Shown here: positions 26,011 through 42,354 of the stretch, piece after piece | How the letters are laid out: every line of letters begins with the position of its first letter | Numbering within the stretch: position 1 is the first letter of the stretch | Assembly: GCA_045589295.1 (NCBI GenBank) | Contig: JAZNOU010000015.1 | Location: 1 to 47,743 of the forward strand | DNA: 47,743 bases | Direction: 5' to 3' | Origin: Clostridia bacterium | Lineage (GTDB): Bacteria > Bacillota > Clostridia > RGIG6154 | Position numbers and translations under genes: made by a program | The notes under the pieces: model-generated | The model's input: only the letters and a program-made list of their open reading frames with translations | Database searches by the model: none | Told to the model about the DNA's origin: nothing

Positions 26011-26016
26011 AACAAC

Positions 26017-26050
26017 AAAAAAGCGAATGTTACCTACATTCGCTTTTTTT
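26017..26050. terminator. Bidirectional intrinsic terminator
   Basis: AAAAAAGCGAATGT-TACCT-ACATTCGCTTTTTT between convergent genes. Confidence 0.88.
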
Positions 26051-26650
26051 ATTTATAAACTCTTCAAGTTTATTTGCATCACCATCAAAAAGATATGTAT
26101 TTATCCCCAATGCACTTGCCGCATCTGTATTTGCCTTGCTGTCGTCTATGAAAAGACACTCTTTTGCATTTAACCCATACTTTTCAAGTATATGTTCAAA
26201 AATCCTTTTATCTGGCTTTATCATTCCAACCTCGCCTGAAAAAACAAGTCCGTCAAACTTGTCAAAAAGCTCCTTTATCCACGGATAATTGTGATAGCTA
26301 TTAGCAAAACCTTTGCTTATATTTGAAAGGATATAAAGCTTTTTACCGCTCTTTTTAAGTTTTTCAACCACTTCTACCGTTTCCCACATTGGCGGCAGAT
26401 TTTCAATCCACTTATCAAAAACCTCAACGCCTAGAAGTGAGAGACCATCAGGCAAACTGCTTGTAATTCTTTGCTTTACTATATCATCCGTAACCAGTCC
26501 TGCATCAAGCTTTTCCCAGTGAGTTGCATTAAATATTACGTCTGTTATAATTTTTGCAGATTCTGGGTCTTTTACAACACACTCTGTAAGTTCTTTAGGG
26601 CAAAACCTCGCCAGAACATTTCCAAAGTCAAAAATATAATTTTTAATCAT
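26030..26650 (-). CDS. HAD-family hydrolase/phosphatase
   Basis: IFDFGNVL, LSN, KPD, FIDD motifs I-IV. Confidence 0.92.
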   Translation of the reverse strand: MIKNYIFDFGNVLARFCPKELTECVVKDPESAKIITDVIFNATHWEKLDAGLVTDDIVKQRITSSLPDGLSLLGVEVFDKWIENLPPMWETVEVVEKLKKSGKKLYILSNISKGFANSYHNYPWIKELFDKFDGLVFSGEVGMIKPDKRIFEHILEKYGLNAKECLFIDDSKANTDAASALGINTYLFDGDANKLEEFINKKSECR

Positions 26651-26682
26651 CTTTCCACCTGTTTCTATTGATCGCCCCGATA

Positions 26683-28050
26683 TTAATTATCCTTAAGCAA
26701 ATCTTCTAATTGTGCAACAGGCATAGGGCGATACAAGTAATACCCCTGAAACATATCACAACCTGCCTCTATCGCTGTTTCCTTATGTTGTTGTGTTTCA
26801 ATCCCTTCGCACAGAGTCTTAAATCCCAGGTCATGTGCAGTACGGATAATATTTTTAAGTATTACAAATCCAGCCTCGGTAATTGCATTTTGGGTAATAG
26901 ATTTGTCAATCTTTACAACACTGATATTAAACTCAGTCAGGTCGCCAAACGATGTATATCCATGGCCAAAATCATCAAGAAGAACTTTTATTCCCTTTCC
27001 CTTTAATTTAATTAAATTTTCTGTCAAAATACCTCTTTCATCTTTTGTAAGATTTTTATCTTCTAAAATTTCAATCGCTACACAAGAATAATCAAGCTCA
27101 TATTTTTCAATTATTTCGACTATTGTTTCTGTAAATCTTTTACTGCAAAGAGTAGTTCGCGAAAAATTGATTGCATACAAATAATTTGTGCGGTTTTCCT
27201 TATCGTTTGCTATCCATTTGCAATTTTTTTCAAATATGTAGTAATCAAATTTTTCATTTAAGCCAACGTTATTTACCGCAGACAAAAATGTTCTGGGTGT
27301 TAAAATTCCATCAGCCAGTGAATTAAGGCGCGACAAAACTTCTGCACCTACAATTTTGTTAGTCTTTGCATCTAAAATTGGTTGATACTCAAGAAAAAAC
27401 CTGTTGTTTTCAATTTCATTTTGTATGTTGTTTTCTATTTTTATTTTTCTCTCAAAATCTTTACCATTACTGCTATCCCACTGACAATACAAAGTTTCTT
27501 CATTTTCAGCTATGGTACATGCCTGCTTTGCTCTTTCCAAAGCTGTTTTAAAAACAACATCGGTTGCACATGTGCAGTAAACTCCAAAATTTACGTGTGC
27601 AATGTTCACCGCTTCATAACTTACAAAAATCTTATTAATTTCTTCATAACACTTATTGATGCAAACTGTTATTTTATCTGTCCCGCAATTACTGAGTGCT
27701 ACAAAATTGTTTTTGCCGTAAAGGGAAATTTCCCCATTTATATTAACGCAAAAATGAGAAAAAACTGTTTTCCTTATATTTTCTAGAATTTTGACTGATT
27801 TTGCCTCAGAATATAGGCGCTGAGTGCTGTCAAGCGATACAGAAATATAAACAAGACAGCGTTCTTTACGCATACTTCCTGCTTTTTCAAAACTATTTTC
27901 AATTTTCCCTATACCACAAAAACTTTTCTCAACTGTCCCGTTTGCAGTTTTTACAGATTTAATGGTAAAGTACGCTCCAACAACACCCATAAACACAAAA
28001 CACATTGCAAGAATGGTTATAATTACGTACGGATACTCTAAAAATTGCAT
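26683..28050 (-). CDS. Membrane-anchored EAL phosphodiesterase with degenerate GGDEF-like domain
   Basis: N-terminal TM; YGKNNF at the GGDEF position; YQP, EVLSR, INFS, IEILE, DDFGHGYTS, KID, EGIE, QGY. Confidence 0.92.
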   Translation of the reverse strand: MQFLEYPYVIITILAMCFVFMGVVGAYFTIKSVKTANGTVEKSFCGIGKIENSFEKAGSMRKERCLVYISVSLDSTQRLYSEAKSVKILENIRKTVFSHFCVNINGEISLYGKNNFVALSNCGTDKITVCINKCYEEINKIFVSYEAVNIAHVNFGVYCTCATDVVFKTALERAKQACTIAENEETLYCQWDSSNGKDFERKIKIENNIQNEIENNRFFLEYQPILDAKTNKIVGAEVLSRLNSLADGILTPRTFLSAVNNVGLNEKFDYYIFEKNCKWIANDKENRTNYLYAINFSRTTLCSKRFTETIVEIIEKYELDYSCVAIEILEDKNLTKDERGILTENLIKLKGKGIKVLLDDFGHGYTSFGDLTEFNISVVKIDKSITQNAITEAGFVILKNIIRTAHDLGFKTLCEGIETQQHKETAIEAGCDMFQGYYLYRPMPVAQLEDLLKDN

Positions 28051-29127
28051 TTAATTAACTCCTGCCATTTCAAAAATAGGAAACTCCTTAGTTCCTGACT
28101 TATATTTAAGTCCGATTTTTTCAGCAACCTTAATATATTTTTCAATATCTTTTTTGGCTGACATTTTTCTTCTTATTACTTCCTTTGTAATAAACAGCGG
28201 ACTAAAAACAAGCATTCCTTTTAAAATATCACCTTTTTTTATTCCGCATCTTTTGTATTCTGCAAGCATTTCAAACAAAGCATAATCAATTGCCTCTTTG
28301 TCAATTTTTTTTGCATTTGTTTTCTTAAGCCACTTTGTATAACTGATAAACTTATTTATATCTGCATTTTCTTTAAAATAAATGCCGCTGATATAAAATT
28401 CTTTCATTTCTTCAGGCATACTTTGCATAAGCGCAGAATAATATTTTTGCTGTATTTTCAGCACTTCTGTGTGTTGCCTTTCAAGTGTTGTACTTGTAAT
28501 TTGCTTATCGTGAAGTCTGTATATCAAGAGATATTCATCAAGAATTTGTATTTTTTCATTTTCAATCACCATTCTTGTCCACAGTTCTAAGTCCTCTGTA
28601 CAAGTGAGTGTTGTATCATAATTAAGTCTTTTCATAACTTCTGCTTTGGCAATTACCCCAGGATGAAGTATCGGATTTGTAACCAAAAGCATTGCTTTTA
28701 AAGCCTTATCGTCACATCTTCCTCCGCATCCGCCCGATGAATACACACCGTTTTTAACAGTTAAAAATCTACATGATGACAATGACACATCAGGGTTTTG
28801 CTGCATAAATTCATACTGTCTTTCAAACCTTTCAGGAAGACAGATATCGTCTGCATCCATTCGTGCTATGTATTTGCCGCTACACAAAGAAATTGCTTTA
28901 TTAAGCGATGTAGGAAGCTTTAGATTAACCTCGTTTGTATACACTTTTATCCTATCATCTTTTGCTGCAAAAGCGGCAAGTATGTCACTTGTTGAGTCTG
29001 TAGAACAGTCATTTATAACAATCAGCTCCCAATTTTTAAATATCTGTGCTACAACACTTCCTATTGCTTCTTCAAGATACGTTTCACCATTATATACACT
29101 CATAATTATTGATATTTCAGGTGTCAT
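28051..29127 (-). CDS. Glycosyltransferase family 2
   Basis: ISIIMSVYN, INDCSTD, ARMDADD, EDLELW. Confidence 0.93.
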   Translation of the reverse strand: MTPEISIIMSVYNGETYLEEAIGSVVAQIFKNWELIVINDCSTDSTSDILAAFAAKDDRIKVYTNEVNLKLPTSLNKAISLCSGKYIARMDADDICLPERFERQYEFMQQNPDVSLSSCRFLTVKNGVYSSGGCGGRCDDKALKAMLLVTNPILHPGVIAKAEVMKRLNYDTTLTCTEDLELWTRMVIENEKIQILDEYLLIYRLHDKQITSTTLERQHTEVLKIQQKYYSALMQSMPEEMKEFYISGIYFKENADINKFISYTKWLKKTNAKKIDKEAIDYALFEMLAEYKRCGIKKGDILKGMLVFSPLFITKEVIRRKMSAKKDIEKYIKVAEKIGLKYKSGTKEFPIFEMAGVN

Positions 29128-29133
29128 ACTATA

Positions 29134-30153
29134 TCACCCTTTCTTTATTTTCTTTTTGATATTTTTACATATATTAAGAAAATAAAATGCTGTTTTATAA
29201 CACTCTCTTTTCATAAAAAATATACCTATTCTGCTTTTAGACGAAATATTTTTAAAATCAGCCTTTTTAATCTTTTGGTTATGTACCGAATTTAAAATAT
29301 TGTTTTTTAGTTCCTGCATGCACTCAAAATGATTTCCCTCTGCTGCCGCCGCCAATATTGCAAAACACATAAAACAACAATAACGACTCAGTTGTTCTTC
29401 AAAATCAGGTACCTTTACCATATCGGTTTCATAAATTTCATTTATTACGTCTTGTATAAGAAAAATCTGTTTGGTGTTGAAATCTTTTGAAAGAGAATCA
29501 TCTCTCATAGTATATAAATAAGCTTCTTTCTTGCTTATATACACACTTTCTGCCTTAAGATAACACGGAATTACACAGCACAAATCCTCACCCAGTGAAA
29601 TTTTTTCGTTTACATTAAGTTGAATTGGCATCAAAAGTTCACGTTTTACTGCCTTTCCTGATAAATAATATGAAATATGATTCATATTTTTATCCATTAA
29701 AAGCCGAGGGTAAATATGCGTTTTAATTCCTTCTTTGTCATAAAATCCTTCGTTAATACCATCATTTGTAACATTGAACGTCTGTCCGTTTTTAACCCAT
29801 CGATAGGAAAATGACACAATATCAGAACCTGTATCTTTTATTATCTTATAAGCACATTCCAACGTATCTTTTTCAATCATATCATCTGAATCGAGGTTTA
29901 ATATATAGTCACCTTCTGCAATCTTTATGCCTGCCCTCCTTGCACTCGCAAGTCCGCCGTTTGGCTTATGTATAACTTTTACACGATTATCCTTTTCCTT
30001 AAAGCTTTCACAAATTTCAGGACAACCGTCAGGTGAACCGTCATCAACTAAAATCAATTCAAAATCTTCAAATGTTTGATTTAAAGCGCTGTTTATACAA
30101 TTTTCAAGATATTTTTCCACTTTATACACAGGTACAATCACAGAAAAAAACAT
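29134..30153 (-). CDS. Glycosyltransferase family 2
   Basis: SVIVPVYK, VDDGSPD, NGGLASAR, LDSDD, GED. Confidence 0.93.
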   Translation of the reverse strand: MFFSVIVPVYKVEKYLENCINSALNQTFEDFELILVDDGSPDGCPEICESFKEKDNRVKVIHKPNGGLASARRAGIKIAEGDYILNLDSDDMIEKDTLECAYKIIKDTGSDIVSFSYRWVKNGQTFNVTNDGINEGFYDKEGIKTHIYPRLLMDKNMNHISYYLSGKAVKRELLMPIQLNVNEKISLGEDLCCVIPCYLKAESVYISKKEAYLYTMRDDSLSKDFNTKQIFLIQDVINEIYETDMVKVPDFEEQLSRYCCFMCFAILAAAAEGNHFECMQELKNNILNSVHNQKIKKADFKNISSKSRIGIFFMKRECYKTAFYFLNICKNIKKKIKKG

Positions 30154-30163
30154 TAAAATTCCC

Positions 30164-31222
30164 CTATCTGTTCCTTAATCCCACAAGACATTTAAGCACA
30201 AAATACATTTTGTGTTTCATAGCACAAGCAAACGCTCTTTGCTTAAGCGACAGTGCCTTAATTGGGTATGATTTGAGTGCTCTTACAGTCAAACTGTGTG
30301 TACATACTTCTTTTAGTCTTTCCTTTAAATCTGCATACTTAACATTGTTGTAATTAGCATTCATTATTTCCTGAGAGCAGAGCACTCTGCACATTGCCTG
30401 CCAAAATCTATAAATATAAATTTGATATTCCTCTGGACTGATGTCCTTTTTAAATTTTTTTTCAACCTCATTTACAAAAACAAGACTTTTTTCAAACCTG
30501 TCTTTTTTATATGACTTAGAAATTGAATCACCGTTTCTGCAATAACTGTAAAATGCTTCGTTTATCCCTGTGGCCTTTTGTATGCATGATATGTAATCTA
30601 TCATAAACAGAGCATCTTCAGAAAGCATTTCCCTTTCAGACTGAAAAATAAGATTATTCTGATTAATTATTTCTCTTCTAAACAGATTTTTCCAGATACT
30701 CATACCATACTTACTGTCGTCTTCGTCTTCAGGCAAGGAACCCACAATACCCAACTTTAGTTTTTTCAAATCCTCATTGGTTTCAAAATGTGTGTCCTTA
30801 TCGAAATATGATTTTTTTATGCACTCGCCCTCTTTGCTGAACATATTTCCGTCTACAAACAAAACTCCCGACATTATAAGGTCTGAATTATATTTTTCTG
30901 CAGTTTCATAAAGTGTTTCAAACATTTTGGGAGAAACATAATCATCAGAGTCAACAAAACCAATATATTTTCCTGTTGCAATTTCAAGAGCTGCATTTCT
31001 TGCCTTTCCCGCGCCCTCGTTTATTTTGTGAATAACCTTTATACGGCTGTCTTTTTGAGCTTCTTCATCGCAAATTTCAGGTGACCTGTCACAAGACGAG
31101 TCATTTACAAGTATTATTTCTATGTTTTCAAGTGTCTGATTTGTCAAAGAATCAATACATCTTTTTAAATATTTTTCAACATTATATACCGGAACAATAA
31201 TGCTTACATAGGGTTGTAACAC
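30164..31222 (-). CDS. Glycosyltransferase family 2
   Basis: SIIVPVYN, FVDSDD, SED; GTG start at 31222 after GAGGTG. Confidence 0.92.
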   Translation of the reverse strand: MLQPYVSIIVPVYNVEKYLKRCIDSLTNQTLENIEIILVNDSSCDRSPEICDEEAQKDSRIKVIHKINEGAGKARNAALEIATGKYIGFVDSDDYVSPKMFETLYETAEKYNSDLIMSGVLFVDGNMFSKEGECIKKSYFDKDTHFETNEDLKKLKLGIVGSLPEDEDDSKYGMSIWKNLFRREIINQNNLIFQSEREMLSEDALFMIDYISCIQKATGINEAFYSYCRNGDSISKSYKKDRFEKSLVFVNEVEKKFKKDISPEEYQIYIYRFWQAMCRVLCSQEIMNANYNNVKYADLKERLKEVCTHSLTVRALKSYPIKALSLKQRAFACAMKHKMYFVLKCLVGLRNR

Positions 31223-31226
31223 AGTT

Positions 31227-32435
31227 TCACCTCGCAGCCAGTTCTTTATATTTTTCAATTAACATCTCGCAGTATGTTTCCACCTCTAGTATGTTTTTAT
31301 TTTCATTTTTGCAGTTTTCTTTAAGGGTTTTATAATATTTGTCATCCTCAAAAATCTGCCTTAGTTTGAGCGCAATGCCCTCCGGCGAACAGTCGCTTAC
31401 AAGACTTCCTGTTTTGCCGTCTTTTACAAGCTCCGCCATTCCGCCTTTGTTCATAGTTACAACCGGAACACCCATACAATGTGCCTCAAGTATTGAGAGT
31501 GGACAGTTTTCGTAACATACAGACGGCAATAGTAAAACCTTTGCTTTTCTTATAAAATCAGTAAGGTTATCTCCGCTTAAAAATCCCACAAGTTTAACAT
31601 TTTCTATGTTTTTAAGTACATCTTCATCAGGACCGCTTCCTGCGACCATAAAATTATATTCAGGAACAAGCTCTGCTGTGCGGGCAATATACTCAACGCC
31701 CTTTTCCTTAGAAAGTCTTCCCACAAACGCAATATAGTTTTCAGGATTTTCTTCTGTTTTGCAAAATTGATTTTTATTTATAAAATTATGTATCGTATAA
31801 GTTTTGCCCTTATAAAACTTTTTTGCCGATAAAAGTTTGTTTTCCAAAAAAACACTAGGACAAACAAATAAATCAACCTTTTTGTATGTTTTTAAAAGCG
31901 AATAAAACTTTGATTCAATTACCCCTAAAACGCTTTTGACAGTTGATGAATGAATACATTTATTTTTAATGCAGTTAATATGCGATCCGTTTACACATTT
32001 TTCGCAAGGCTCATTTTTGTCAAAATTGTATAAAAGGTGATTTGGGCAAATCATCTGGTAATCGTGCACCGTCTGAACAACAGGAATTTTTCTTTTCTTT
32101 GCTCCATAAATAACAGAAGGTGTAAGTTGAAAATTTATGTTGTTTAAGTGGACAATATCAGGTTTAAATTCATCTATAACCTGAAGCATCTTCTTTTTTG
32201 CCTCAAAAGAATAAATAATTTTAAAAGGATACAAAAACCTTGCTATTCCTTTTGAGTGAAAGTCCATATTCGCAGTATACTTACCAGCGCGGTTTCCAAC
32301 TGTATTCTTTTCATCATACATTCCAAAATATTGAACCTCGTGGCCCATTTTTTCAAAGTGCTGTCCCAATGACAGCATATAGCTTTCACTGCCGCCTCTT
32401 GGGTACAAAAATTTATTTACCATCAAAATCTTCAT
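31227..32435 (-). CDS. Glycosyltransferase family 4
   Basis: RGGSE, HDYQMICPN, VGRLSKEKG, ENCPLSILEA (Ex7E). Confidence 0.93.
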   Translation of the reverse strand: MKILMVNKFLYPRGGSESYMLSLGQHFEKMGHEVQYFGMYDEKNTVGNRAGKYTANMDFHSKGIARFLYPFKIIYSFEAKKKMLQVIDEFKPDIVHLNNINFQLTPSVIYGAKKRKIPVVQTVHDYQMICPNHLLYNFDKNEPCEKCVNGSHINCIKNKCIHSSTVKSVLGVIESKFYSLLKTYKKVDLFVCPSVFLENKLLSAKKFYKGKTYTIHNFINKNQFCKTEENPENYIAFVGRLSKEKGVEYIARTAELVPEYNFMVAGSGPDEDVLKNIENVKLVGFLSGDNLTDFIRKAKVLLLPSVCYENCPLSILEAHCMGVPVVTMNKGGMAELVKDGKTGSLVSDCSPEGIALKLRQIFEDDKYYKTLKENCKNENKNILEVETYCEMLIEKYKELAAR

Positions 32436-33736
32436 AGCAGCAAGTCACGTTCCCTTTCTCTATTTTGCATTGAAATATAACCGAATATTTTATTTTCTTC
32501 CTCTCGTACACTTTCGTCAAATCCGTTACCCATCATAAGCATTGCAAGAACACCTGCAAGTAAAGGATAGTTCATCGTATTATCGGTTGTTGATACAATT
32601 ATAAGGTAAAGTGTAAGCATAAATGTAATAATGGCATTTTCCACTTTTCCTTTTCTGCCAAAATACCATACTCTGACTAAAGTCATTGATACAAGCCAGA
32701 TAATATACCCGCAAAAGCCCAGGTCAATAAAATGCTGAAGAAAATCGTTATGAACAGATGCAACACCAACATTCATAAATGTGTTTAACTGATAAGTTAA
32801 AAAGCCTATCCCGTTGCCCATAAATGTTGGAGTAAATTCGTAAAACTTATCAACCGCATTGTAAATTTCCACGCGTCCGCTTGTGTTTATTCCTGCTTCT
32901 TCCAAAAGTTCAAAAGTACCCGCCTTAATAACTGCGATATATCCGACAAGCAAAACAATTATTACAGTTGAAAAAAGTATAACAAGACGACTTGCGGTTT
33001 TTTTGTTGTATTTTGCAACAAATTTTAATAAATATCCAAATACTAATGCAATTGCAATCGCTATAATAGCAATTCTTTTAAATGCTGATAAAAAGCAAAA
33101 AAGACTAAGTGCAAGCAGAATAAAGTATGCTATATTTTTCTTCGGTTTAAAAAGCATATAAATCAGATACGCCCCTAAGCAAAACGCAAGCTCGTGAATT
33201 TCAGCCTGAACAATAATATCACCCGTTTCGCCTGCAAATGTGGTTATAAGTGTTATCAATTCAGCCATATAATTTCCAAATCCGTACTGTGCAACAATGG
33301 TTACAATCATTAAAAGATTTGCTGTTAAAATAGCAACAAGATTATACCACACACCCGCTTGGCCAAAAACATAAAGCATGGCCCCCGCAGCAAGTGCAAG
33401 TGAAAACATATTTGAATATATAAACGAACTTGAAAGTCCTCTTGAAATAACGCCCGTATCCACCGTCTGAACAAACCAAATAAAGAGCGAAACAACAGTT
33501 GTTACTCCTAAAGGAATGCTATAGACACATGCTGATTTAAACGCTGAACTCCCCCTTGCAATATTGGGGTTATATAAAAACAAAACTATTGCAGAAAAAG
33601 CAAGAACAAGTGCAAAGGCATGTCGGTATGTGACTTGCAAGCCAACATCAATGTATTCGTTCAAAAAATAATACATCATCACGGCTACAACCATAAAATA
33701 AAACATTTTAATCTTTTCAATGATTTTATTTTCCAA
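32432..33736 (-). CDS. O-antigen ligase / Wzy-like polymerase
   Basis: About 11-12 hydrophobic segments, SAFKR, SGR loop, GNGIG, HNDFLQ..DLG. Confidence 0.82.
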   Translation of the reverse strand: MENKIIEKIKMFYFMVVAVMMYYFLNEYIDVGLQVTYRHAFALVLAFSAIVLFLYNPNIARGSSAFKSACVYSIPLGVTTVVSLFIWFVQTVDTGVISRGLSSSFIYSNMFSLALAAGAMLYVFGQAGVWYNLVAILTANLLMIVTIVAQYGFGNYMAELITLITTFAGETGDIIVQAEIHELAFCLGAYLIYMLFKPKKNIAYFILLALSLFCFLSAFKRIAIIAIAIALVFGYLLKFVAKYNKKTASRLVILFSTVIIVLLVGYIAVIKAGTFELLEEAGINTSGRVEIYNAVDKFYEFTPTFMGNGIGFLTYQLNTFMNVGVASVHNDFLQHFIDLGFCGYIIWLVSMTLVRVWYFGRKGKVENAIITFMLTLYLIIVSTTDNTMNYPLLAGVLAMLMMGNGFDESVREEENKIFGYISMQNRERERDLLL

Positions 33737-33752
33737 CCGACCTGCCCTCCTT

Positions 33753-35621
33753 TTATAACAATTCGCTGTGGTCTTTTAAATCAGATATATATGTTTTTTT
33801 GTTTTTTATTGCTTCTGAAAGCAGTTTTCTTGCAGTTTTATTTTCTTTGAATGTTTCAGCCATACCTATTTTGTATTCAATCACAATATCTCTGTGATTT
33901 TCTCTGTCATCTAAACGAAGCTTAAACAATCGCATAATATCTTCTACCGTAATGTAATCTGAGTTTTCTGTAAGTATTACAAAGCTTCCGTTACCGTTAT
34001 AAATAAACTCAGCTTTTGTTTTACCAAATGCCTCTTTGATATATGCTGTAAACATTTTAATAATTGCATCTCCGACATCTCTTGAATACTCTGCGTTTAA
34101 GTGTGCAAGATTTTGTATGTCTACCATACAATACACAACTCCGTCATCAAGAAACTTTTTATCTTTGGTTTTAAGATATTTGTCAAAATATGCTCTGTTA
34201 TTGAAGCCTGTAAGGTGATCTGTGTAGAAGATATAGTTTATAATATCACCCAATCTGCCTAAAACAATTGCGCTTCCGCAACAAAGAACAACAAGGAACA
34301 AAAATGCAATTATAGTATAAAGCGTAACATTAATACTTTCCCTTACAGAAGCCGACGACAATACAGAAATATAAGTGGCGCCAAGATACTCATTGTATTC
34401 ATCATTGGTTTTGGTAGTTATATCATAAAGAGATGTAAGTTTCTTTACCAAAGCATCAATTTCTTGTTCAATTTCCTGTTTCATATTGCCGTATTCAGGA
34501 TTATAAAGTTCAGTGCATGTTAAATTTGAACCTATACAACTGCCGTCGCAATTTCCCGTACAGTTGTTAAAAGTATCAATAACATACCTGCAATACGCAG
34601 AATCAATAACAGCATGCTCTTTGCTTTCTCTGTGATTTTTCCAGCTATAAATAAGTTCATCATACGTTACAGTCTGGTCACCAACATAATCCTGAACATT
34701 TCTTTCGTGGAGATTATCCAATATGTACTCATAGCTTATATTGGTATTTCCTGATTCTCTCATTTTGGTAACATACGCATCTATTACTGTAACAATGTCT
34801 TCAACAATACTGTCATCTTTTGTATTTGAAATGTTATTGCTGTCTATTCTTGTTGTATAGTCTGAAATAAGTACTGATTTGTTTTTAGTAATCTGATTTT
34901 TATAAATTTTTGAAAAGAGTGCAGAAACGTTTACCTGTCTTAAATAGTTAAATTCATCTGCAAGGTCACTGAATGATATTCCTGTCTGTGTTGACCTGTA
35001 ATAATTATTTTGATCTATTCTCTGATACAATGTAGTTAACGTGCTGTCAATACTTGTATCAATCATTTCCATCATTTCAATATAATCGTAATCACCTTTA
35101 TTAAGATTTGCAATAGTATTATTTGCTGGTGCTACATTAACGTACTTCTGGCTAAACTGGGCAAAATAAACATCAAGTGTTTCATCAAGTATGGTTCTTG
35201 CAAAATCTGCTCCCTCGCCGCTTGTTGCTGTAAAGGAAATGATATATGTACTTGGCTCATATATATACTCTTCGCCCTCTTCCAGCTTAGCATCTTTTTG
35301 CGCTACCTTATCCTTGTCCTCTATAGGTGTTATGTCTATTCTAGAAATAAGATTATCAACCGAATAAATGCCCGTCAGTCCCATTTTATCAACAACTTTT
35401 GACATAACTGCAGAAGACTTGATTTCATTAACATCTAGCTTATCACCAGTGGGGGCAAGCCCTTTTTCCGCCTGTTCATCATTATAGTGGATAACTTCGG
35501 ATGCAATAAATGTATTTGATGTAGAAAGTTTAAAGTAAATAGCATATGTTGCTAAAAGGCAAAAAACAATTATCAGCGGCAAAAGTTTTCTTAAATATCT
35601 AAACATTTGAAAATTCTTCAT
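33753..35621 (-). CDS. Polysaccharide copolymerase-like membrane protein fused to a degenerate GGDEF domain
   Basis: TM - large helical loop (EIKSSAVMSKVV) - TM, then YTDHLTGFNNRAYF...MVDIQNL..LN..Y...GD..I...YNGNGSF. Confidence 0.75.
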   Translation of the reverse strand: MKNFQMFRYLRKLLPLIIVFCLLATYAIYFKLSTSNTFIASEVIHYNDEQAEKGLAPTGDKLDVNEIKSSAVMSKVVDKMGLTGIYSVDNLISRIDITPIEDKDKVAQKDAKLEEGEEYIYEPSTYIISFTATSGEGADFARTILDETLDVYFAQFSQKYVNVAPANNTIANLNKGDYDYIEMMEMIDTSIDSTLTTLYQRIDQNNYYRSTQTGISFSDLADEFNYLRQVNVSALFSKIYKNQITKNKSVLISDYTTRIDSNNISNTKDDSIVEDIVTVIDAYVTKMRESGNTNISYEYILDNLHERNVQDYVGDQTVTYDELIYSWKNHRESKEHAVIDSAYCRYVIDTFNNCTGNCDGSCIGSNLTCTELYNPEYGNMKQEIEQEIDALVKKLTSLYDITTKTNDEYNEYLGATYISVLSSASVRESINVTLYTIIAFLFLVVLCCGSAIVLGRLGDIINYIFYTDHLTGFNNRAYFDKYLKTKDKKFLDDGVVYCMVDIQNLAHLNAEYSRDVGDAIIKMFTAYIKEAFGKTKAEFIYNGNGSFVILTENSDYITVEDIMRLFKLRLDDRENHRDIVIEYKIGMAETFKENKTARKLLSEAIKNKKTYISDLKDHSELL

Positions 35622-35642
35622 CTTTTTCCTCCCTAAATAATT

Positions 35643-36998
35643 TTATGCCTTTTTCGGAAATTTCTTTGATATGGCAAACAGCACAAGAGCTATATATACA
35701 AACACTGCAAACAAAGCAATTGTCTTAAGCTCATTCATAAGTGAAATTCCATAAATAGTTACCGCGATACACTGATTCATTCTGTAGTTAGAATACTCTC
35801 TTCCCGCATTTACTGCCTCTTTTTCAAAGCCTTTGATACTTTCGTAGATGGATTCAATCAGCTTGTCGGCCTCCTGATAAACCCGCTCTGACGAACTCGC
35901 CTGGCTTATCTTTCCTATTATAAGATTATTATCCATAATTTCTTTTTCATTTGATGCTACATAATTACTGAAATCAGCTGCCTGAACAGACAATTCATCA
36001 ACACCGACTTTAGTTCTGCCCATATAGTACTTGCCTGACTGATCCCATGTAGGGACAAGCACAATTCTTGTCATTTCTTCGCTATACATATCAACCGCCT
36101 GATTGCAAAGGTTAAATGATATCTGATTTTTCTGACGGTCAAAATCAACGTTTTTATTCTGGTATGAAAGTCTTTCAATATAGTTGTTTTGCTTCCTTAC
36201 AATTCCATTTTGCAAAATAAGTGACCTTAAATTCTGATTTATCTGTGTTTCTTTAAACTGATACACCTTTCCTGCAATAGCATTAAATGTGTTGTTGCTT
36301 TGAGTAACAAAACTTGAGTTTTTCTCTGCCATTCCGTACAAATAATTTAAAATGGCCGTTGTTTCTTTGTCAAAATACGATACTATGTCCATATATTCCA
36401 TATTTTCAAAATCTGGTTTTTCAGAATCAAGGCTGAAATTATCTGTATATTTTTCTATGTAATACTCTTTATAAGCTGTTGTAATAAGCTTGATAACATT
36501 TTCAGTATCAAGATGTGCAGTATGCTTTGAAGCGTGATATTCTACTGCAAACTCTGTTGAAATATGGTACTGCGATTCATCTCCTACACCGCCCTGTACA
36601 CATGGATACACCGAAAGACAGTTTTTAAGTTGTTTTACAGTTACGTTTTCCAATGCACCTTTTTTTATGGCTCTTTCAACAACCTCGTCACATATTATTT
36701 CTGCCATATTATATCTGGTGCCATTTGAATTTTGCGCTTGTGACGCTTCAGAATAATTAAGAGAAATAACCGCATGAACCGATTTTTTCATATCAATATG
36801 ATTAAGCACCCCAAACACTGCCGTAAAAACAAAGCACACTATCACTGTCCATAGGCTGAAATACTCTGCAGTTTTAAAAATCCTTTTAAACTCTGTACGG
36901 TTTACGTTTTTGGAACGAAAATATATTATAGCGGCTGATATAATAAACAGCGCGCCGATAATTAACACCGGTATTTTTTTAAGAATTGCCGTATACAT
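35643..36998 (-). CDS. Second copolymerase-like membrane protein, paralogous to the extracellular part of its neighbour
   Basis: Two N-terminal TMs, large loop, C-terminal TM; shares co-linear motifs with the 33753-35621 protein. Confidence 0.65.
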   Translation of the reverse strand: MYTAILKKIPVLIIGALFIISAAIIYFRSKNVNRTEFKRIFKTAEYFSLWTVIVCFVFTAVFGVLNHIDMKKSVHAVISLNYSEASQAQNSNGTRYNMAEIICDEVVERAIKKGALENVTVKQLKNCLSVYPCVQGGVGDESQYHISTEFAVEYHASKHTAHLDTENVIKLITTAYKEYYIEKYTDNFSLDSEKPDFENMEYMDIVSYFDKETTAILNYLYGMAEKNSSFVTQSNNTFNAIAGKVYQFKETQINQNLRSLILQNGIVRKQNNYIERLSYQNKNVDFDRQKNQISFNLCNQAVDMYSEEMTRIVLVPTWDQSGKYYMGRTKVGVDELSVQAADFSNYVASNEKEIMDNNLIIGKISQASSSERVYQEADKLIESIYESIKGFEKEAVNAGREYSNYRMNQCIAVTIYGISLMNELKTIALFAVFVYIALVLFAISKKFPKKA

Positions 36999-37018
36999 TT
37001 TTTATCTTCCTCGCCAAA

Positions 37019-38245
37019 TTAAAATTTGTTAATATCAATAATAACCAGTTCAGGCTGATTATTTATGCGCAAAATATTTTTGTTTTCAAGTCCCGAACTT
37101 ACAATAAGCGGTTTGCCAGCAACATCGTATCTTCCATATACAAAATTGTCATTTCTTTCTGGGAACAGGCCGCCCTCGTGAGTATACAAAGGTCCGAGCA
37201 CAGGGACACGAATTTCTCCCCCGTGAGTATGACCACATACCATTAAATCTCCCCAAAACTCAGGGTTAAACTCTTCAAAAATAAATGGTTCATGAACTGC
37301 TGTAATTTTAAGATTGTCTGTATTTTCATAAATATAATTTGCAAAGCTTTTTTCGGTGTATGACCAAAAAGCTGAAGGATTTGATGTCAAAACTCCGTAT
37401 ATGTCAACATTTGTATTTCCTACCTTTATGGTATCTTGCTGGTTTTTCAAAACTTTTATTCCGGATTTTTCAAGTCTTTGCGCAAACTCATCCGCTACAT
37501 TAAGCAGTTTTGTTTCATCGCGGTTTGCCTTGTTAAATCCAAACTTTTTATCAAGTTCTGTTTCATTAAGTTTAAAATCAAATATGGTTTCTGCCTCATT
37601 ATTCCCGTATATATAATAACAAGGCGCGATTTTTGACAATTTGCTTCCAAGATTAACTGCATAATGAACATCATTTTTTGCTGAGTCTACAATGTCGCCG
37701 GTGCATATTATAACGTCAGGTGCCAGTTTTTCCACACGCTCAATAAGTTTATGGTTATCCTTGCCGTATAAACTGCCGTGCAAATCAGATATATGAACAA
37801 CTCTTATGCTGTTGTTAACCTTAAGGCTGCTCACACTGTAAAATGATTCCCTGAAATTTCTGTTTCCTATATAGTTGCACAGGATAACTATAATAACAGT
37901 TGCTATCAGCACAAAAATTATTCCCGCAAACAAAAAGCGAGCGGCTTTTATGTTTTTTTGAACCTTAGGGCTTAGCTGGATTGTTTTCTTCTTTTTCTTG
38001 CGTATTTTAAATTTTTTTCTATATCCTGCAACAGAACAAATGCATGACCACAAAACCTGTTTGCACTCTTTTTTGAATTCCTTAATGTCCTGCTCGCCGT
38101 AATAAGCCAGTACAACACGATTGTCGCTGATTTCTTCAATTTCAAAGGTGCCTTCCCACTCATTGTAAAACTCTTGCGATACTGACTCTTTAAAAAGCTC
38201 CTTTATTTGTTCCTGCAACTTTTCCAATTCATTGATATATTCCAT
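37019..38245 (-). CDS. Membrane-anchored calcineurin-like metallophosphoesterase with extra N-terminal domain
   Basis: HISDLH, TGD, GNNE, HEP, GHTHGG; one TM at about aa 104-125. Confidence 0.88.
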   Translation of the reverse strand: MEYINELEKLQEQIKELFKESVSQEFYNEWEGTFEIEEISDNRVVLAYYGEQDIKEFKKECKQVLWSCICSVAGYRKKFKIRKKKKKTIQLSPKVQKNIKAARFLFAGIIFVLIATVIIVILCNYIGNRNFRESFYSVSSLKVNNSIRVVHISDLHGSLYGKDNHKLIERVEKLAPDVIICTGDIVDSAKNDVHYAVNLGSKLSKIAPCYYIYGNNEAETIFDFKLNETELDKKFGFNKANRDETKLLNVADEFAQRLEKSGIKVLKNQQDTIKVGNTNVDIYGVLTSNPSAFWSYTEKSFANYIYENTDNLKITAVHEPFIFEEFNPEFWGDLMVCGHTHGGEIRVPVLGPLYTHEGGLFPERNDNFVYGRYDVAGKPLIVSSGLENKNILRINNQPELVIIDINKF

Positions 38246-38263
38246 ATTTAATTAACCTTTCAC

Positions 38264-39382
38264 TCACATTTTATAAAGTTTGCAAGTAAGCTCGACAACT
38301 TCCTGCCAGCTATATTTATTTAAAATAAATTCGTCTACCCCATCTCTGAGTTTTTCTACCATATCTTTGTCATCACACATAGCCTGAAGCTTTTGTGCGA
38401 GGTCCTGTATATCACCTTTTTTAAAATACATTGCTCTATCTTCTGCAACTGATGTATTTTCAGGAATGTCCGAACACAAAAGTGCTGTTCTGTAGGCAAG
38501 CGACTCCAAAAGACTTAAAGACATGCCCTCAAGATCAGACGGCAGTGCTGTTATATAGGCATTTGAATATATTTCGTTTAATGTATCGCCTGATATAAAT
38601 CCCGTAAAAATTATATTAGGATTGCCGTCTGCTTTTTCTTTAAGCATTTTTACATAATCGTCGGTATCACTGGTATCTCCTGCTATAACAAGCTTTTTAT
38701 CTGTTTTTACCTGCTTATATGCATCTATAAGATAGTGAATACCTTTTTCTGCGGTAAGTCTTGACACAATACTAATATATTGGTCTTTTTCAAGTCCGTA
38801 TTTTTCTTTAATAATCTCGGCCTCTTTACGCGAAGGTCTGCTTATGCCATTGTGAATAATAACAGCCTCGCGGTTATATGTTTCTTTAAAGTAGTCATAA
38901 GCTGCCTGACTTAATACAATAATTTCATCAGCATATCTGGCAAGTACTTTTTCACCAAATTTTATGTACTTTGAGGCAAACCCCTTGCCCCACTTCTCTC
39001 TCTGCCAATCAAGTCCGTGAACTGTTGCAACACATTTTTTGCCAAAAAGTTTAGGAATCCACAATGCAGCACAAGGACCTTCTGCATGAAAATGAACAAC
39101 GTCATAATCTTTAAATGATGCCGCTATTGCCGCAGTAAAGGATGCAATCATCGCAGCAACACCTTTTACATTCAGCGTCCACGCGTTTTTGATTTTTACA
39201 CCTTTATACATATTGTCCACAACGGTTCCAAGGTACTCGTTTTCCACTTTATCAGTTGAACGGTTGTAGCAAGTAACTTCATGCCCTGCTTCAACCAACA
39301 AAGGACATAAAGTGGTAAGAACATTTTCTATTCCGCCTCTTCTAGATGGAACAACCTTATGTCCAATCATAGCAACTTTCAT
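38264..39382 (-). CDS. Glycosyltransferase family 4
   Basis: GGIE, HFHAEGP, VHGLDW, SRLTAEKG, EGMSLSLLES. Confidence 0.93.
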   Translation of the reverse strand: MKVAMIGHKVVPSRRGGIENVLTTLCPLLVEAGHEVTCYNRSTDKVENEYLGTVVDNMYKGVKIKNAWTLNVKGVAAMIASFTAAIAASFKDYDVVHFHAEGPCAALWIPKLFGKKCVATVHGLDWQREKWGKGFASKYIKFGEKVLARYADEIIVLSQAAYDYFKETYNREAVIIHNGISRPSRKEAEIIKEKYGLEKDQYISIVSRLTAEKGIHYLIDAYKQVKTDKKLVIAGDTSDTDDYVKMLKEKADGNPNIIFTGFISGDTLNEIYSNAYITALPSDLEGMSLSLLESLAYRTALLCSDIPENTSVAEDRAMYFKKGDIQDLAQKLQAMCDDKDMVEKLRDGVDEFILNKYSWQEVVELTCKLYKM

Positions 39383-39404
39383 CTTTTCAACTCCAATTTT
39401 AAAG

Positions 39405-40085
39405 TTATCTGCCGGTAGCTGTAAGCATAACTATCGGTGTTTTTAGCATAATTTTTATATCGTTAAGATATGTTCTTGTCTGTATGTACTCAATATCCAT
39501 TTCAACCCACTGTTCAAACGGAACATCATTTCGGTTTTCATGAATCTGCCACGTGCATGTGATGCCAGGTGTAACCAAAAGTCTGAGTTTCTGATAATCG
39601 GTGTAAAATTCAACCTCTCTTGGAAGCGGAGGCCTTGGGCCTACCAAAGTCATATCTCCTTTAAGCACATTAAAAAACTGCATAAGCTCGTCAAGAGAAA
39701 CCTTTCGTAAAAACTTACCTATTCTTGTTATGCGCGGGTCATCTTTAATCTTAAAAACAGGACCATCCATTTCGTTTTGTTTTGCAAGTTCTTCTATCAT
39801 TTTATCTGCATTGGCACACATTGTTCTGAACTTATACATATAAAATTCTTTACCATGACGTCCTACTCTTATTTGTTTATATAATGGACCTGCGCTTGGG
39901 TCATCAATCACAATTACAATTGCAATAATCGCCATAAGAGGCAAAAAAAACAATAAAATCAATGTCGCAAAAAATATATCAAAAAGTCGTTTCTTTTTCC
40001 AATATGATGCATACGACTTTTCAATAATAGCCTCTAATTTTATTCTTGTTTTTTCATCCACTTTTTCTTGATGAATATATGGCAT
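39405..40085 (-). CDS. Priming polyprenyl-phosphate sugar phosphotransferase (small monotopic type)
   Basis: KRLFDI, YKFRTM, DDPRIT..GKFLRK.SLDEL, LVGPRP, PGITC.WQ. Confidence 0.95.
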   Translation of the reverse strand: MPYIHQEKVDEKTRIKLEAIIEKSYASYWKKKRLFDIFFATLILLFFLPLMAIIAIVIVIDDPSAGPLYKQIRVGRHGKEFYMYKFRTMCANADKMIEELAKQNEMDGPVFKIKDDPRITRIGKFLRKVSLDELMQFFNVLKGDMTLVGPRPPLPREVEFYTDYQKLRLLVTPGITCTWQIHENRNDVPFEQWVEMDIEYIQTRTYLNDIKIMLKTPIVMLTATGR

Positions 40086-40117
40086 TGTTCACACTTCTTT
40101 CATTGACTTTTATTTGT

Positions 40118-40852
40118 TTACCACTCAAACCATTTGCACCTGTGTAAAAGCTTTCCGTACAACTTTTCATAAAGCTTTACGCCTATTATCCGTTTAACAA
40201 ACGTTGTACGCTTGCTTGTTTTGGAAGTCCACGACGCGCAAAAATGATGTATTGAATAAGTATTTTTTGTTATTACCTTTTTACCAGTATAATATTTCAT
40301 AGGACACAGATAGTCTTCCGGAAGCATCTGTATTCCCATAAAAACCTGCTCCCTGTTGTTTATGTCAAGCCCAAGTTTTACCATTGTTTGTGTGTTCCTG
40401 TCCGGGCAAGGCAACAAATCATATGTACCGTCATCACGCAAAAACGGTATGTCGTCATAATCCTTTAAAATTGCGCCCACAAGTTCATTGCCCTTTTCGC
40501 AGGCAAATCCAAGTCCCGTTGAAATAATTCCGTTATCGTCAAATCCCATATACCCGCCTTTTTCAACAAGCTTGTCAATAGGTTTTATAATTTCAACGTC
40601 GGTATCGAGGTAAATTCCACCCTCATCATATAGAACTTTAAGCCTTACGTAGTCACTTACAAATGCCCACTTACCAGCCTCGTATGCTTCTTTTGCATAC
40701 CTATTCTGATTTATGTCAAAATTTCCCTCATTCCAACACACTATTTTGTAGTCAGGGCAAAATTTCTGCCAGCTTTTAATACATTTTTTTGCAAGCTTTG
40801 GCATTTTACCTTTGCCAAACCAGCAATAATGAATTACCTTTGGAATGCTCAT
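40118..40852 (-). CDS. Glycosyltransferase family 32 (DXD sugar-binding type)
   Basis: IPKVIHYCWFG, AFVSDYVRL, GGIYLDTDVE, IHHF.ASW. Confidence 0.92.
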   Translation of the reverse strand: MSIPKVIHYCWFGKGKMPKLAKKCIKSWQKFCPDYKIVCWNEGNFDINQNRYAKEAYEAGKWAFVSDYVRLKVLYDEGGIYLDTDVEIIKPIDKLVEKGGYMGFDDNGIISTGLGFACEKGNELVGAILKDYDDIPFLRDDGTYDLLPCPDRNTQTMVKLGLDINNREQVFMGIQMLPEDYLCPMKYYTGKKVITKNTYSIHHFCASWTSKTSKRTTFVKRIIGVKLYEKLYGKLLHRCKWFEW

Positions 40853-42354
40853 ATTTTTTTCTTCTCCCTGTATAATTCAAAAAGTGTTTTGAATGCAGAT
40901 TTATCAAATACAAAGTTAACAAGTATATATAGTCCTGCAATCCAAATCGAGTGAATAATTCCGTTTAACAAAAGTTTTAAAAATGACATATTGCTAAACG
41001 TGTCAACAAAAAAGATTATAATAATTACAGCAAAAACTGTCGCATTTAAAAACCATTTTTTGTATGTACACATTTGACTTCTTTTTAAAACCTTTTTGTT
41101 TGCATAATAAATTGTCACAATGCTTCGATACAAAAGTGCAGCAATAGTTCCTGCTATAGCTCCGCAAATTCCAAAATAAAAAATTGCCACAACCGAAACG
41201 GTTATATTAATAACCATCTCCCATATTGCATGTGAGCGTGTTTTTTCAAAACTGCCAGAATACTCAATGATACTGTTGATTGGAATTTTTCCGTTAGCCA
41301 AAATATTCATTACTACAAACAGTAAAACAAGAAACACATTTGTGTAGTTTGCATCGTTTATTCCGCCTGTGTAAATTTGTATTAACGGCAACAAAAATAC
41401 CGCCATTAAAGTATAGATTATATAAGTTGCCATTATATACAGCGTTTCATATACATCAAATACTTTTTCAAACTTATTTCTGTCAGTGTGAAACATCTGC
41501 CCGAGTGCAAAGTTAAACGACGAAACAACGCTTGTTATGAAATTCTGCACCTGCGAAAAAAATATATTATATATTGCATATATACTTACTGCTTTAAAAT
41601 CACACAAAACAGAAATTAAAATTACATCTGTATTGTTAAATACCATTCCCGAAATCTGATGCACAAGAACTGAATTTTTCTGAGATATAGCATAAAAATC
41701 GGGTTCTGTTTTTAAATCAAGCCATTTATATCTCTTTTTTGCGTAAACATACAAATACAAAAGCTGAACAAGTGCAATCGCGCAATAAACGACCTGAATA
41801 AGAATAAGACTGTCTGTTAAGAGCAACACTAAAACTTTCCCTGCATTTGAAGCAAGCTGTAGCACTGTTTCAGAATTATTTATTACATACTTTCTTCCGT
41901 CAACTTCCATAAGTATTCTATATTTAGCCTGAACAAAGTAGCTGAAAAGTGCAGGTATTGCATTTAAAATAACCATAAAAAATAAAATATTGCTATTTAT
42001 CGGCGTAGGAATTACATAAGCATACACCAGTGCAATAACAAGTACAATTGCTGAATATATTATCCCCGTCTTAATGTAATAAGCGTTTGTTGCAGATAAA
42101 ACCGCACTTGCACTTTTGTAATCCTTTTCACCAACTCTTTTGTAAAGCGCCTGAGTTGTTGCAAGACCAACGCCCGCTTCCAAAAGGCACATATATGTAA
42201 AAATCTGTTTAATGGTGGATAAAACACCATTGACTTCCGAACCAAAGTTTTCAAGATACAGTCTTGGCAAAAGGAAACTTAAAGATATTAGCACAACCTG
42301 ATAAACCACAGATGATACCAGATTATTTTTTATTCTTAAATCTCTGTCTGCCAA
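40849..42354 (-). CDS. Polysaccharide flippase (Wzx/MOP family)
   Basis: About 12-14 TM segments, GSEVNG, LLEAGVG; first gene of the cluster; TTG start after GAGGGGG. Confidence 0.85.
   Translation of the reverse strand: MADRDLRIKNNLVSSVVYQVVLISLSFLLPRLYLENFGSEVNGVLSTIKQIFTYMCLLEAGVGLATTQALYKRVGEKDYKSASAVLSATNAYYIKTGIIYSAIVLVIALVYAYVIPTPINSNILFFMVILNAIPALFSYFVQAKYRILMEVDGRKYVINNSETVLQLASNAGKVLVLLLTDSLILIQVVYCAIALVQLLYLYVYAKKRYKWLDLKTEPDFYAISQKNSVLVHQISGMVFNNTDVILISVLCDFKAVSIYAIYNIFFSQVQNFITSVVSSFNFALGQMFHTDRNKFEKVFDVYETLYIMATYIIYTLMAVFLLPLIQIYTGGINDANYTNVFLVLLFVVMNILANGKIPINSIIEYSGSFEKTRSHAIWEMVINITVSVVAIFYFGICGAIAGTIAALLYRSIVTIYYANKKVLKRSQMCTYKKWFLNATVFAVIIIIFFVDTFSNMSFLKLLLNGIIHSIWIAGLYILVNFVFDKSAFKTLFELYREKKKI

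Follow-up and report, generated by a model that had tools for sequence, protein, structure and literature searches.

Wzx/Wzy pathways make most bacterial capsules and O-antigens as well as many biofilm polymers. Among the described systems that come closest to the locus reported here are Wzc, a polysaccharide co-polymerase (PCP) of class PCP-2a, and CpsC/CpsD, which combines a PCP-2b protein with a bacterial tyrosine kinase (BY-kinase). In both, a co-polymerase with two transmembrane (TM) helices is encoded beside the polymerase Wzy, and a regulatory cytoplasmic domain follows the second helix (TM2). A second group of relatives comprises PelD, YdaK and PssE, in which a membrane-tethered degenerate GGDEF domain is encoded in an exopolysaccharide (EPS) operon with linked genes for the turnover of cyclic di-GMP (c-di-GMP). 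PelD, YdaK and PssE bind c-di-GMP at a retained RxxD inhibitory site (I-site) and serve synthase-type systems, which are either of the glycosyltransferase family 2 (GT2) kind or of the Pel kind. The locus described here lies in a 47,743-nt stretch of DNA from a Clostridia bacterium of the lineage RGIG6154 (assembly GCA_045589295.1, contig JAZNOU010000015.1, positions 1 to 47,743; this whole stretch is called the window below). It is an operon of the Wzx/Wzy type for a heteropolysaccharide and belongs to uncultured gut Clostridia; its 14 open reading frames (ORFs), all on the minus strand, are named g1 to g14 in the order of transcription, from 42354 down to 26030. One of the encoded proteins, g7, is a PCP-like protein that ends in a degenerate GGDEF domain (dGGDEF). 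We read the locus as a Wzy-type system that may be coupled to c-di-GMP, and we put the probability of this reading at roughly 0.5.

The locus resembles the Wzc and CpsCD systems in its layout and fails every test for a kinase module. P-loop kinase, tyrosine cluster (the last 25 residues of g7 hold a single tyrosine) and PHP or low-molecular-weight (LMW) phosphatase are all absent, and a dead GGDEF domain is attached instead. A further difference is that the co-polymerase is here a pair of paralogues, with ectodomains of about 350–400 residues each. No Walker A motif is present in the 14 operon proteins or in six flanking proteins, and neither BY-kinase, PHP, LCP nor LMW phosphatase families were found among the operon proteins and the 26 other window ORFs scanned. 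This bears out an initial annotation of this DNA, made from the letters alone, which had described a Wzy-type operon without the kinase module. From PelD, YdaK and PssE the locus differs in that the I-site is absent and the machine is of the Wzy type.

Other described systems share single traits with this locus. The only machines for which PMC4443731 describes control by c-di-GMP at the post-translational level are synthases, among them Alg44 and BcsA, and PMC8892547, for its part, describes kinase-bearing PCPs for capsules. A dedicated phosphodiesterase beside one polysaccharide machine is also seen in the DgcC/PdeK module of the E. coli cellulose synthase and in the NfrB module (PMC7397504 and PMC8669469). 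These are proteobacterial systems that depend on a synthase, use PilZ or MshEN receptors and involve no co-polymerase. Regulators of the RpfG type, with REC and HD-GYP domains, resemble a protein encoded beside a PCP-dGGDEF gene in Monoglobus (see below). In Xanthomonas, according to PMC3749722, the physical contact between HD-GYP and GGDEF proteins is independent of cyclase activity and controls pilus motors, not a co-polymerase. The tyrosine pseudokinase EcpK of the Myxococcus EPS system (PMC12004946) is a Wzy-type case in which the cytoplasmic partner of the PCP has lost catalysis yet is important, the dead domain being a kinase there and a domain of diguanylate-cyclase fold here. A literature search on GGDEF domains or c-di-GMP in connection with Wzz, Wzy, Wzc, co-polymerases or chain-length determinants, with subscription journals and supplementary files outside its scope, did not yield any paper that reports a GGDEF or EAL domain on a PCP. 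Two of the papers, PMC11340318 and PMC5532660, list both kinds of gene separately, and their loci still have kinases or P-loop proteins.

The probable co-polymerase pair and its degenerate GGDEF domain

The protein g7 (33753..35621; 622 residues) is laid out, by hydropathy, as a first TM helix at residues 9–35, an ectodomain of about 400 residues, TM2 at residues 428–462 and a cytoplasmic dGGDEF at residues 466–604, the last of which is matched by the Pfam GGDEF family (PF00990) with an E-value of 5e-13 and 49.5 bits against a cutoff of 23.8. Its neighbour g6 (35643..36998; 451 residues) has an ectodomain of about 350 residues and three TM segments, one of which is an extra segment at the N-terminus. 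Both genes stand directly upstream of the Wzy gene g8 (32432..33736), and the arrangement that characterizes a PCP, two TM helices around a large ectodomain beside Wzy, is thus present in g7 and, with the additional segment, in g6. A profile comparison with hhalign aligns g6 to the PCP part of g7 over 376 columns (probability 98.7%, E 1.5e-16). A search of PDB sequences with g6 found nothing. The Pfam Wzz family is matched by 13 of 42 members of the g7 family, and a single one of these (P0220), which aligns to g7 residues 4–452 with an E-value of 2e-44, scores above the cutoff (29.4 versus 25.5 bits). In addition, a g6-like half (25% identity, E 1e-24) and a g7-like PCP half are naturally fused in one metagenomic protein (P0243), which suggests that the two kinds of PCP act together. 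From their layout and these relationships we infer that g6 and g7 form the Wzy co-polymerase.

Two sets of relatives were used to follow this pair. A scan of 1.84 billion cluster representatives gave 1474 relatives of g7 at E<=1e-3, of which 138 reach E<=1e-30; among the best 150, 71 contain the full PCP and dGGDEF, 45 the PCP part only, and the rest are fragments. Relatives with a name come from Dorea, Acutalibacter, Eubacterium and Monoglobus, and public annotation calls them 'diguanylate cyclase' or 'GGDEF domain-containing protein'. The second set stems from one genome per species, in which 215 stretches with a g7 relative were found and the best 80, with 71–83% identity, were kept. These 80 related loci come from metagenome-assembled genomes labelled Clostridia, Oscillospiraceae, Acutalibacteraceae, Monoglobaceae or Congzhengia, and gene counts are given below as loci with the gene over loci that span its expected place.

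The tail of g7 is a GGDEF domain by fold that has lost the signature of the family. The g7 family profile matches 56 solved GGDEF chains (best E 2e-14), the sequence GNGSF of g7 being aligned to GGEEF of 6zxb and the consensus Y-N-G-x-G-x-F of 53 full-length members to R-x-G-G-E-E-F of solved cyclases. The motif GG[DE]EF is kept in 0 of the 79 GGDEF-like domains among the best 150 representatives, and the RGSD of 8c05 aligns to residues that are not conserved in the family. Judged by these alignments, the g7 dGGDEF is no cyclase, and it is not a receptor of the canonical I-site type either. Across 79 related loci it retains 79% amino acid identity with a ratio of nonsynonymous to synonymous polymorphism (pN/pS) of 0.17 at synonymous sites near saturation, and the ectodomain of g7 shows 80% and 0.15 over the same loci. 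Identity and pN/pS of the dGGDEF indicate purifying selection and therefore a domain that is functional and not decaying. Near-invariant across the family are the juxtamembrane motif G-R456-x-x-D459 and residues N475, D480, N542 and R598. N509 and D518, which we take to be the counterparts of the guanine-contacting residues of cyclases, are invariant in the twelve closest members and largely kept more widely. G-R456-x-x-D459, N509 and D518 are candidates for a non-canonical nucleotide site.

In the architecture of g7 the dGGDEF sits at the very position of the tyrosine autokinase domain of Wzc-type proteins. The initial annotation had noted a GGDEF-like tail and a GGDEF/EAL module in place of the kinase module, to which it should be added that the motif is degenerate. 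The dGGDEF tail would then replace the kinase domain as the cytoplasmic switch of the co-polymerase.

Genes for c-di-GMP turnover beside the probable co-polymerase

Near the end of the operon, g13 (26683..28050) encodes a protein made up of a TM segment, a degenerate GGDEF domain with the sequence YGKNNF and an EAL domain (Pfam PF00563, 194 bits, E 3e-57). Residues 59–451 of its profile align to the GGDEF-EAL tandem of MorA (4rnh) with an E-value of 1.8e-43. E237, R241, N295, E327, E330, D359, D360, K380, E415, E418 and Q435 are invariant in 21 sequences and presumably constitute the EAL catalytic set; the motifs EVLSR, N295, E-I-L-E, DDFG, K-I-D, E-G-I-E and Q-G are likewise invariant in these sequences. 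On this comparison the EAL domain of g13 has an intact catalytic set. A second gene for a TM-EAL protein is present in 32 of the related loci. As a separate observation, two related loci have, next to the operon, a gene for a Cache-TM-GGDEF protein with an intact RMGGDEF motif; in one of them (L022:19259-21550) this sensor-TM-GGDEF gene lies directly downstream of the operon, and its cluster occurs in 2/80 loci. The protein from L022 is a candidate for the cognate cyclase.

Gene neighbourhoods of distant relatives were read in two contexts, both from annotated records of a plasmid collection (PLSDB). The more informative is that of Monoglobus pectinilyticus, a named species with an assembled genome, which carries the module (NZ_OY725743.1). 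Its PCP-dGGDEF protein has 880 residues, shares 30% identity with g7 (E 2.5e-87) and carries the sequence motifs GYNGSDQF and GRMQD. Also present in the locus are homologues of the priming transferase (48% identity), of two family 4 glycosyltransferases (GT4; 49% each), of g1 (21%), of Wzy (28%), of g6 (28%, E 2e-46) and of the phosphoesterase g5 (35%), together with GT2 genes. It has no EAL gene and encodes, in its stead, an Hpt protein and one of REC-HD-GYP type. The latter shows the motifs HD, HHE and GYP, and NCBIfam matches it best, at a score below the cutoff, to a response-regulator c-di-GMP phosphodiesterase. In the annotation of this record neither a kinase nor an LCP gene appears within 14 kb.

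The presence of EAL and HD-GYP proteins, two unrelated classes of phosphodiesterase, in one conserved core is the strongest argument that turnover of c-di-GMP belongs to the function of the system. The relative P0261, a PCP fused straight to an EAL domain, is a further pointer in this direction; on inspection by eye, the motifs of its EAL domain are partly degenerate, DDFG being changed to DNFG and K-I-D to K-L-S. The four genes that the initial annotation had singled out as a set (PCP-dGGDEF, second PCP, phosphoesterase and EAL) do occur together in the related loci, with counts from 62/62 to 72/72, and three of them return in Monoglobus at 28–35% identity, the fourth being replaced there by HD-GYP.

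A possible mechanism

In the pathway that these assignments outline, the repeat unit would be built on undecaprenyl phosphate by g3 and the glycosyltransferases g2, g4 and g9 to g12, as follows from the established Wzx/Wzy route and the families of these proteins, and would be flipped across the membrane, probably by g1. Polymerisation would take place outside the cell through the Wzy protein g8, with a co-polymerase composed of the paralogues g6 and g7. The dGGDEF of g7 most likely couples this machine to c-di-GMP, either by means of a non-canonical binding site or as a dock for the phosphodiesterase. The membrane-anchored g13, co-transcribed with the machine, would degrade c-di-GMP locally and in this way turn polymerisation off, with the cyclases encoded elsewhere. 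If other EPS systems are a guide, synthesis is probably activated by c-di-GMP. The most speculative step concerns g5, whose catalytic domain is predicted to lie outside the membrane beside the PCP ectodomains; it may act there on a pyrophosphate-linked lipid intermediate, in polymer release or in carrier recycling.

A further-reaching version of this scheme is possible and is put forward only tentatively. According to it, PCP-dGGDEF proteins would be a new class of co-polymerase, widespread in gut Clostridia, in which c-di-GMP replaces tyrosine phosphorylation. The nucleotide at a ring of dGGDEF domains, set by the EAL or HD-GYP protein of the operon, would drive assembly and disassembly of a g6/g7 hetero-oligomer and thereby gate Wzy, and g5 would replace the LCP enzymes by cleaving the undecaprenyl-pyrophosphate link and so releasing the polymer.

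Weighing the proposed coupling to c-di-GMP

A number of observations weigh against a coupling of the operon to c-di-GMP. The canonical I-site RxxD, which would lie five residues upstream of the GGDEF position, is absent from g7, where KTKAEF is found. Within the candidate nucleotide site, D518 is replaced by N in several members of the g7 family, and G-R456-x-x-D459 is, taken by itself, a conserved motif and nothing beyond that. Close kinship between the degenerate GGDEF domains of g7 and g13 was considered and rejected, as the two are not detectably close (E 0.018). The operon has no cyclase gene, and one lies nearby in only 2/80 loci. A c-di-GMP riboswitch is not matched by Rfam at the gathering threshold, and the leader region 42250-42650 gives no match even at E<=1. 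As for the co-polymerase, neither g7 nor g6 itself matches Pfam Wzz (PF02706), and the profile of the PCP family, compared with PDB, recovers no solved PCP and only weak coiled-coil matches. The fusion of PCP-dGGDEF with a metallophosphoesterase that is discussed below for g5 was found in 1/82 relatives, as three sequences on one contig, and is weak evidence, since it may be a read-through of adjacent genes. The synteny of the 80 related loci is not independent because all belong to one clade, and distant contexts number only two, one of which is weak. This is pNP95 of Pseudobutyrivibrio xylanivorans, where a PCP-like protein has 26% identity over 43% of g7 and no GGDEF domain, and where its gene is adjoined by genes for a PAS-EAL-PAS-GGDEF protein, a GGDEF protein, Wzy, a GT2 and GtrII. 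Finally, the absence of a kinase covers the window and flanks of 10–14 kb in relatives, and a CpsCD pair elsewhere in the genome is possible.

Some of these points are also what would be expected if the dGGDEF were a nucleotide-independent module for structure or oligomerisation, or a GTP sensor, with the EAL domain as a passenger that lowers global c-di-GMP and a polymerase that is not gated by c-di-GMP, an explanation that we consider unlikely. The g7 domain has neither a canonical I-site nor an active site, and GGDEF-domain proteins can work through protein contacts for which cyclase activity is not needed (PMC3749722). The 45 of the best 150 representatives that consist of a PCP part without GGDEF imply that the PCP can work without the dGGDEF, and the degenerate GGDEF domain of g13 is far less conserved than that of g7 (51% identity, pN/pS 0.39). 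Against this explanation it counts that EAL and HD-GYP proteins stand in the same conserved core of two distant lineages, that a PCP can be fused directly to an EAL domain (P0261) and that the EAL gene is kept in 62/62 loci. The retention, for the most part, of N509 and D518, presumably positions of guanine contact, also speaks against it. The initial annotation had proposed that the polysaccharide machinery is regulated directly by a module of the cyclic-nucleotide type. The coupling part of this proposal is probable on the present evidence; its word 'directly' goes further, for a GGDEF domain without active site or canonical I-site may sense the nucleotide by itself or leave this to a partner.

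Conservation of the operon

Among the related loci, the flippase candidate g1 is present in 56/56, g2 in 58/58, the priming transferase g3 in 62/62 and g4 in 66/66; g5 is found in 70/70, g6 and g8 in 72/72 each and g9 in 68/68, and the downstream genes g10, g11, g12 and g13 in 65/65, 64/64, 63/63 and 62/62, respectively. An acetyltransferase gene upstream of g1 is present in 47/54. This synteny shows selection on the whole set g1 to g13 and not independent co-occurrence. In the flanks of the 80 loci (285 ORFs of >=130 residues in 67 clusters, within 10 kb), Pfam finds no family of the BY-kinase type and no LCP family; one PHP fragment was seen, in 1/80 loci and outside the operon.

Most relatives have a longer operon than the window. 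Genes for a GtrII-like and a YdjC-like protein lie between g2 and g3 in 56/58 loci (e.g., L001:3100-5532), and a gene for a PgfS-like GT2, present in 50 loci, follows g13 in most relatives together with the second TM-EAL gene (L001:18969-19922). Three loci, namely the window, L061 and L071, are without the GtrII-like, YdjC-like, PgfS-like GT2 and second TM-EAL genes (the corresponding gaps of the window are 40085-40118 and 26650-26683), and this short variant suggests that a side-chain glycosylation unit has been lost or gained. In one of the short-variant loci a gene for a phage-type integrase lies just downstream of the operon (L071:19031-19861).

Conservation of this degree raises another explanation, in which the product is a housekeeping, clade-wide cell-wall polysaccharide whose control lies elsewhere, for example in a CpsCD-type kinase pair or an LCP ligase outside the window; we hold it to be improbable. 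In its favour, conservation across 80 species-level genomes extends to all 13 genes, those for the glycosyltransferases without exception, which sets the locus apart from variable capsule loci, and most relatives add a side-chain glycosylation pair of PgfS-like GT2 and GtrII-like glycosyltransferase of the GT-C type, a pair typical of wall polysaccharides. The kinase search, moreover, extended over the window and the flanks of 10–14 kb, with the rest of the genome lying outside it. Against this explanation, the cytoplasmic end of the PCP already holds a conserved domain, unlike the short tail of CpsC-type proteins, and in 82 contexts there is no kinase, PHP or LCP gene within 10–14 kb, the one PHP fragment aside. 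A housekeeping product would in any case be compatible with control by c-di-GMP.

The metallophosphoesterase g5

Between the glycosyltransferase gene g4 and the PCP genes lies g5 (37019..38245), which encodes a membrane-anchored YaeI/LpxG-like metallophosphoesterase (Pfam Metallophos, E 2e-12). The metal-binding set DxH, GD, GN(N/H)E, H and GHxH is present; in g5 it takes the form DLH, GD, GNNE, HEP and GHTHGG, conserved in 15 aligned sequences, and the clade of the window has N in place of the usual H of GNHE. The best NCBIfam matches are YaeI (76.6 bits, cutoff 188) and LpxG (58.4 bits, cutoff 350), both below the equivalog cutoffs, and a search of PDB sequences with g5 found nothing. YaeI, YkuE and LpxG thus share a motif set with g5, from which they differ in that g5 scores far below their cutoffs, is fixed in a Wzy operon beside PCP genes and has an additional cytoplasmic N-terminus of about 95 residues. 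The nearest named families, YaeI/YkuE and LpxG, consist of enzymes that are located outside the cytoplasm or have lipid pyrophosphates as substrates, an extracytoplasmic location being described for the YkuE family (PMC5449189).

In g5, an N-terminal part of about 95 residues is followed by one TM segment and then by the catalytic domain, with 12 lysines or arginines before the TM segment and three after it. The Monoglobus homologue is a plain protein with an N-terminal signal anchor, and in the fusion mentioned above (P0188) the order is PCP-dGGDEF-TM-Metallophos, with a TM segment between the cytoplasmic dGGDEF and the Metallophos domain. Because of this charge bias, the signal-anchor form in Monoglobus and the layout of P0188, the catalytic domain of g5 is predicted to be extracytoplasmic and its N-terminal part of about 95 residues to be cytoplasmic. 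A CpsB-like cytoplasmic phosphatase was considered for g5 and rejected on the predicted topology. The N-terminal part (residues 1–95, 37961-38245) has no family match and evolves faster than the catalytic domain, with 48% as compared with 70% identity; the Monoglobus homologue lacks it, and its position is taken by the dGGDEF in P0188.

That g5 serves the regulatory module in the cytoplasm, as its phosphatase or its cyclic-nucleotide phosphodiesterase, as the initial annotation had implied by placing it in the regulatory set, is very improbable in the light of this topology, of the Monoglobus and P0188 forms and of the kinship with YaeI/YkuE and LpxG, even if g5 always adjoins the two PCP genes (70/70 loci and Monoglobus) and both protein phosphatases and phosphodiesterases for cyclic nucleotides are found in the Metallophos superfamily. 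With its catalytic domain predicted to lie outside the cell, g5 would not be a stand-in for CpsB.

Layout of the operon and neighbouring genes

The ORF listing and a script agree on 14 co-oriented ORFs on the minus strand, from 42354 to 26030, with gaps from -32 to +32 bp, as the initial annotation had it for 14 tightly spaced genes. Pfam backs 12 of its 14 gene labels; the labels of the flippase g1 and of the second co-polymerase g6 were not confirmed directly and are backed by indirect homology only. The first gene, g1 (40849..42354), encodes a polytopic protein of 501 residues with 12–14 hydrophobic segments. It has no match in Pfam, NCBIfam or PDB; its 120 listed homologues are, where named, 'hypothetical protein' (one is called 'sugar isomerase'), and none has a Pfam domain. 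The Monoglobus protein that resembles it at 21% identity (E 2e-16) has a sub-threshold Polysacc_synt match of 23.1 bits (cutoff 28.2), and an hhalign comparison of g1 with a MurJ protein from L077 was not significant. From this indirect homology, g1 is a probable Wzx-like flippase.

The glycosyltransferase genes follow. g2 (40118..40852) encodes a GT32-type enzyme with a DXD motif (Pfam Gly_transf_sug, E 6e-17), and g3 (39405..40085) a small polyprenyl-phosphate hexose-1-phosphate priming transferase (Pfam Bac_transf, E 7e-65, 218 bits versus a cutoff of 27; NCBIfam EPS_sugtrans, E 3e-77, under the cutoff). g4 (38264..39382) is a GT4 by Pfam, and its best NCBIfam match is the rhamnosyltransferase Cps2T (98 bits versus a cutoff of 500). 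The polymerase candidate g8, of the O-antigen ligase family, matches Pfam Wzy_C with 38.1 bits (cutoff 31.7) and has hydrophobic stretches that merge into about 7–9 TM segments. It is presumably a polymerase, and the Wzy_C family also holds ligases. After it come, all assigned by Pfam, the GT4 gene g9 (31227..32435) and the GT2 genes g10 (30164..31258), g11 (29134..30153) and g12 (28051..29127). The listed TTG start of g10 overlaps g9 by 32 nt, and its true start may be further downstream.

The last gene, g14 (26030..26650), encodes a HAD-IA hydrolase (Pfam, NCBIfam) and is tightly linked to g13, with a gap of 32 bp and no terminator ahead of it. It had been counted initially as a gene of the operon unit. 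As a member of the module it was rejected, since 0/62 related loci that reach g13 carry a HAD gene; g14 is co-transcribed here yet outside the conserved unit. The end of the operon is marked by a bidirectional terminator-like hairpin (26017..26049, assigned to neither strand) with a 14-bp stem and T runs on both strands.

Upstream of g1, a hexapeptide acetyltransferase gene (42575..43117, minus strand; Pfam Hexapep) probably belongs to the conserved locus and lies only 17–74 bp from g1 in most relatives. Its NCBIfam matches, EpsC with 80 bits and WcaB with 54 bits, score under their cutoffs. The spacer between it and g1 is 220 bp in the window. A candidate promoter-like site on the minus strand (42510..42538) consists of TTGACA, a 17-nt spacer, TATCAT and a TG extension, with 11 of 12 consensus positions; it is the best consensus match in 25300-45000, a region in which the total of such sites is not above that of shuffled sequence. 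The spacer further contains a hairpin with a T-run at about 42365-42405, just ahead of the ribosome-binding site of g1, and in the leader 42365-42470 (minus strand) an upstream segment can pair with the 5' arm of this hairpin, in the manner of a terminator/antiterminator choice. A conserved leader attenuator was nevertheless rejected as a candidate: the z-score is -0.7, a T-run is present there in only 4/57 relatives, and the acetyltransferase gene mostly abuts g1.

Elsewhere in the window, rmlA, rmlC and rmlD lie together and rmlB stands 4 kb off, behind glutamate-dehydrogenase and oxidoreductase genes (10520-14336, 18423-19442); a phosphoglucomutase gene is found near them. These genes likely supply precursors for the polymer. 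On the other side (44833-47390 and 47614-47730), two genes lie between the locus and a 5S rRNA gene. One encodes a protein of 560 residues in which a DUF4379 treble-clef zinc finger is repeated six times, the other a DUF5677 protein, and neither is conserved beside the operon in relatives.

Concluding remarks

The question on which this locus bears is how a co-polymerase is switched, and this includes the systems with tyrosine kinases. If the coupling is true, the operon would be the first Wzy system gated by c-di-GMP, one in which nature itself has run the experiment of exchanging a kinase for a second-messenger domain. The assembled genome of Monoglobus pectinilyticus contains the module and, as this species can be cultured, the idea of the coupling should be testable at the bench. 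In all, a Wzy machine of this kind would offer a handle on the production of surface polysaccharides in gut Clostridia, which are abundant and poorly studied.

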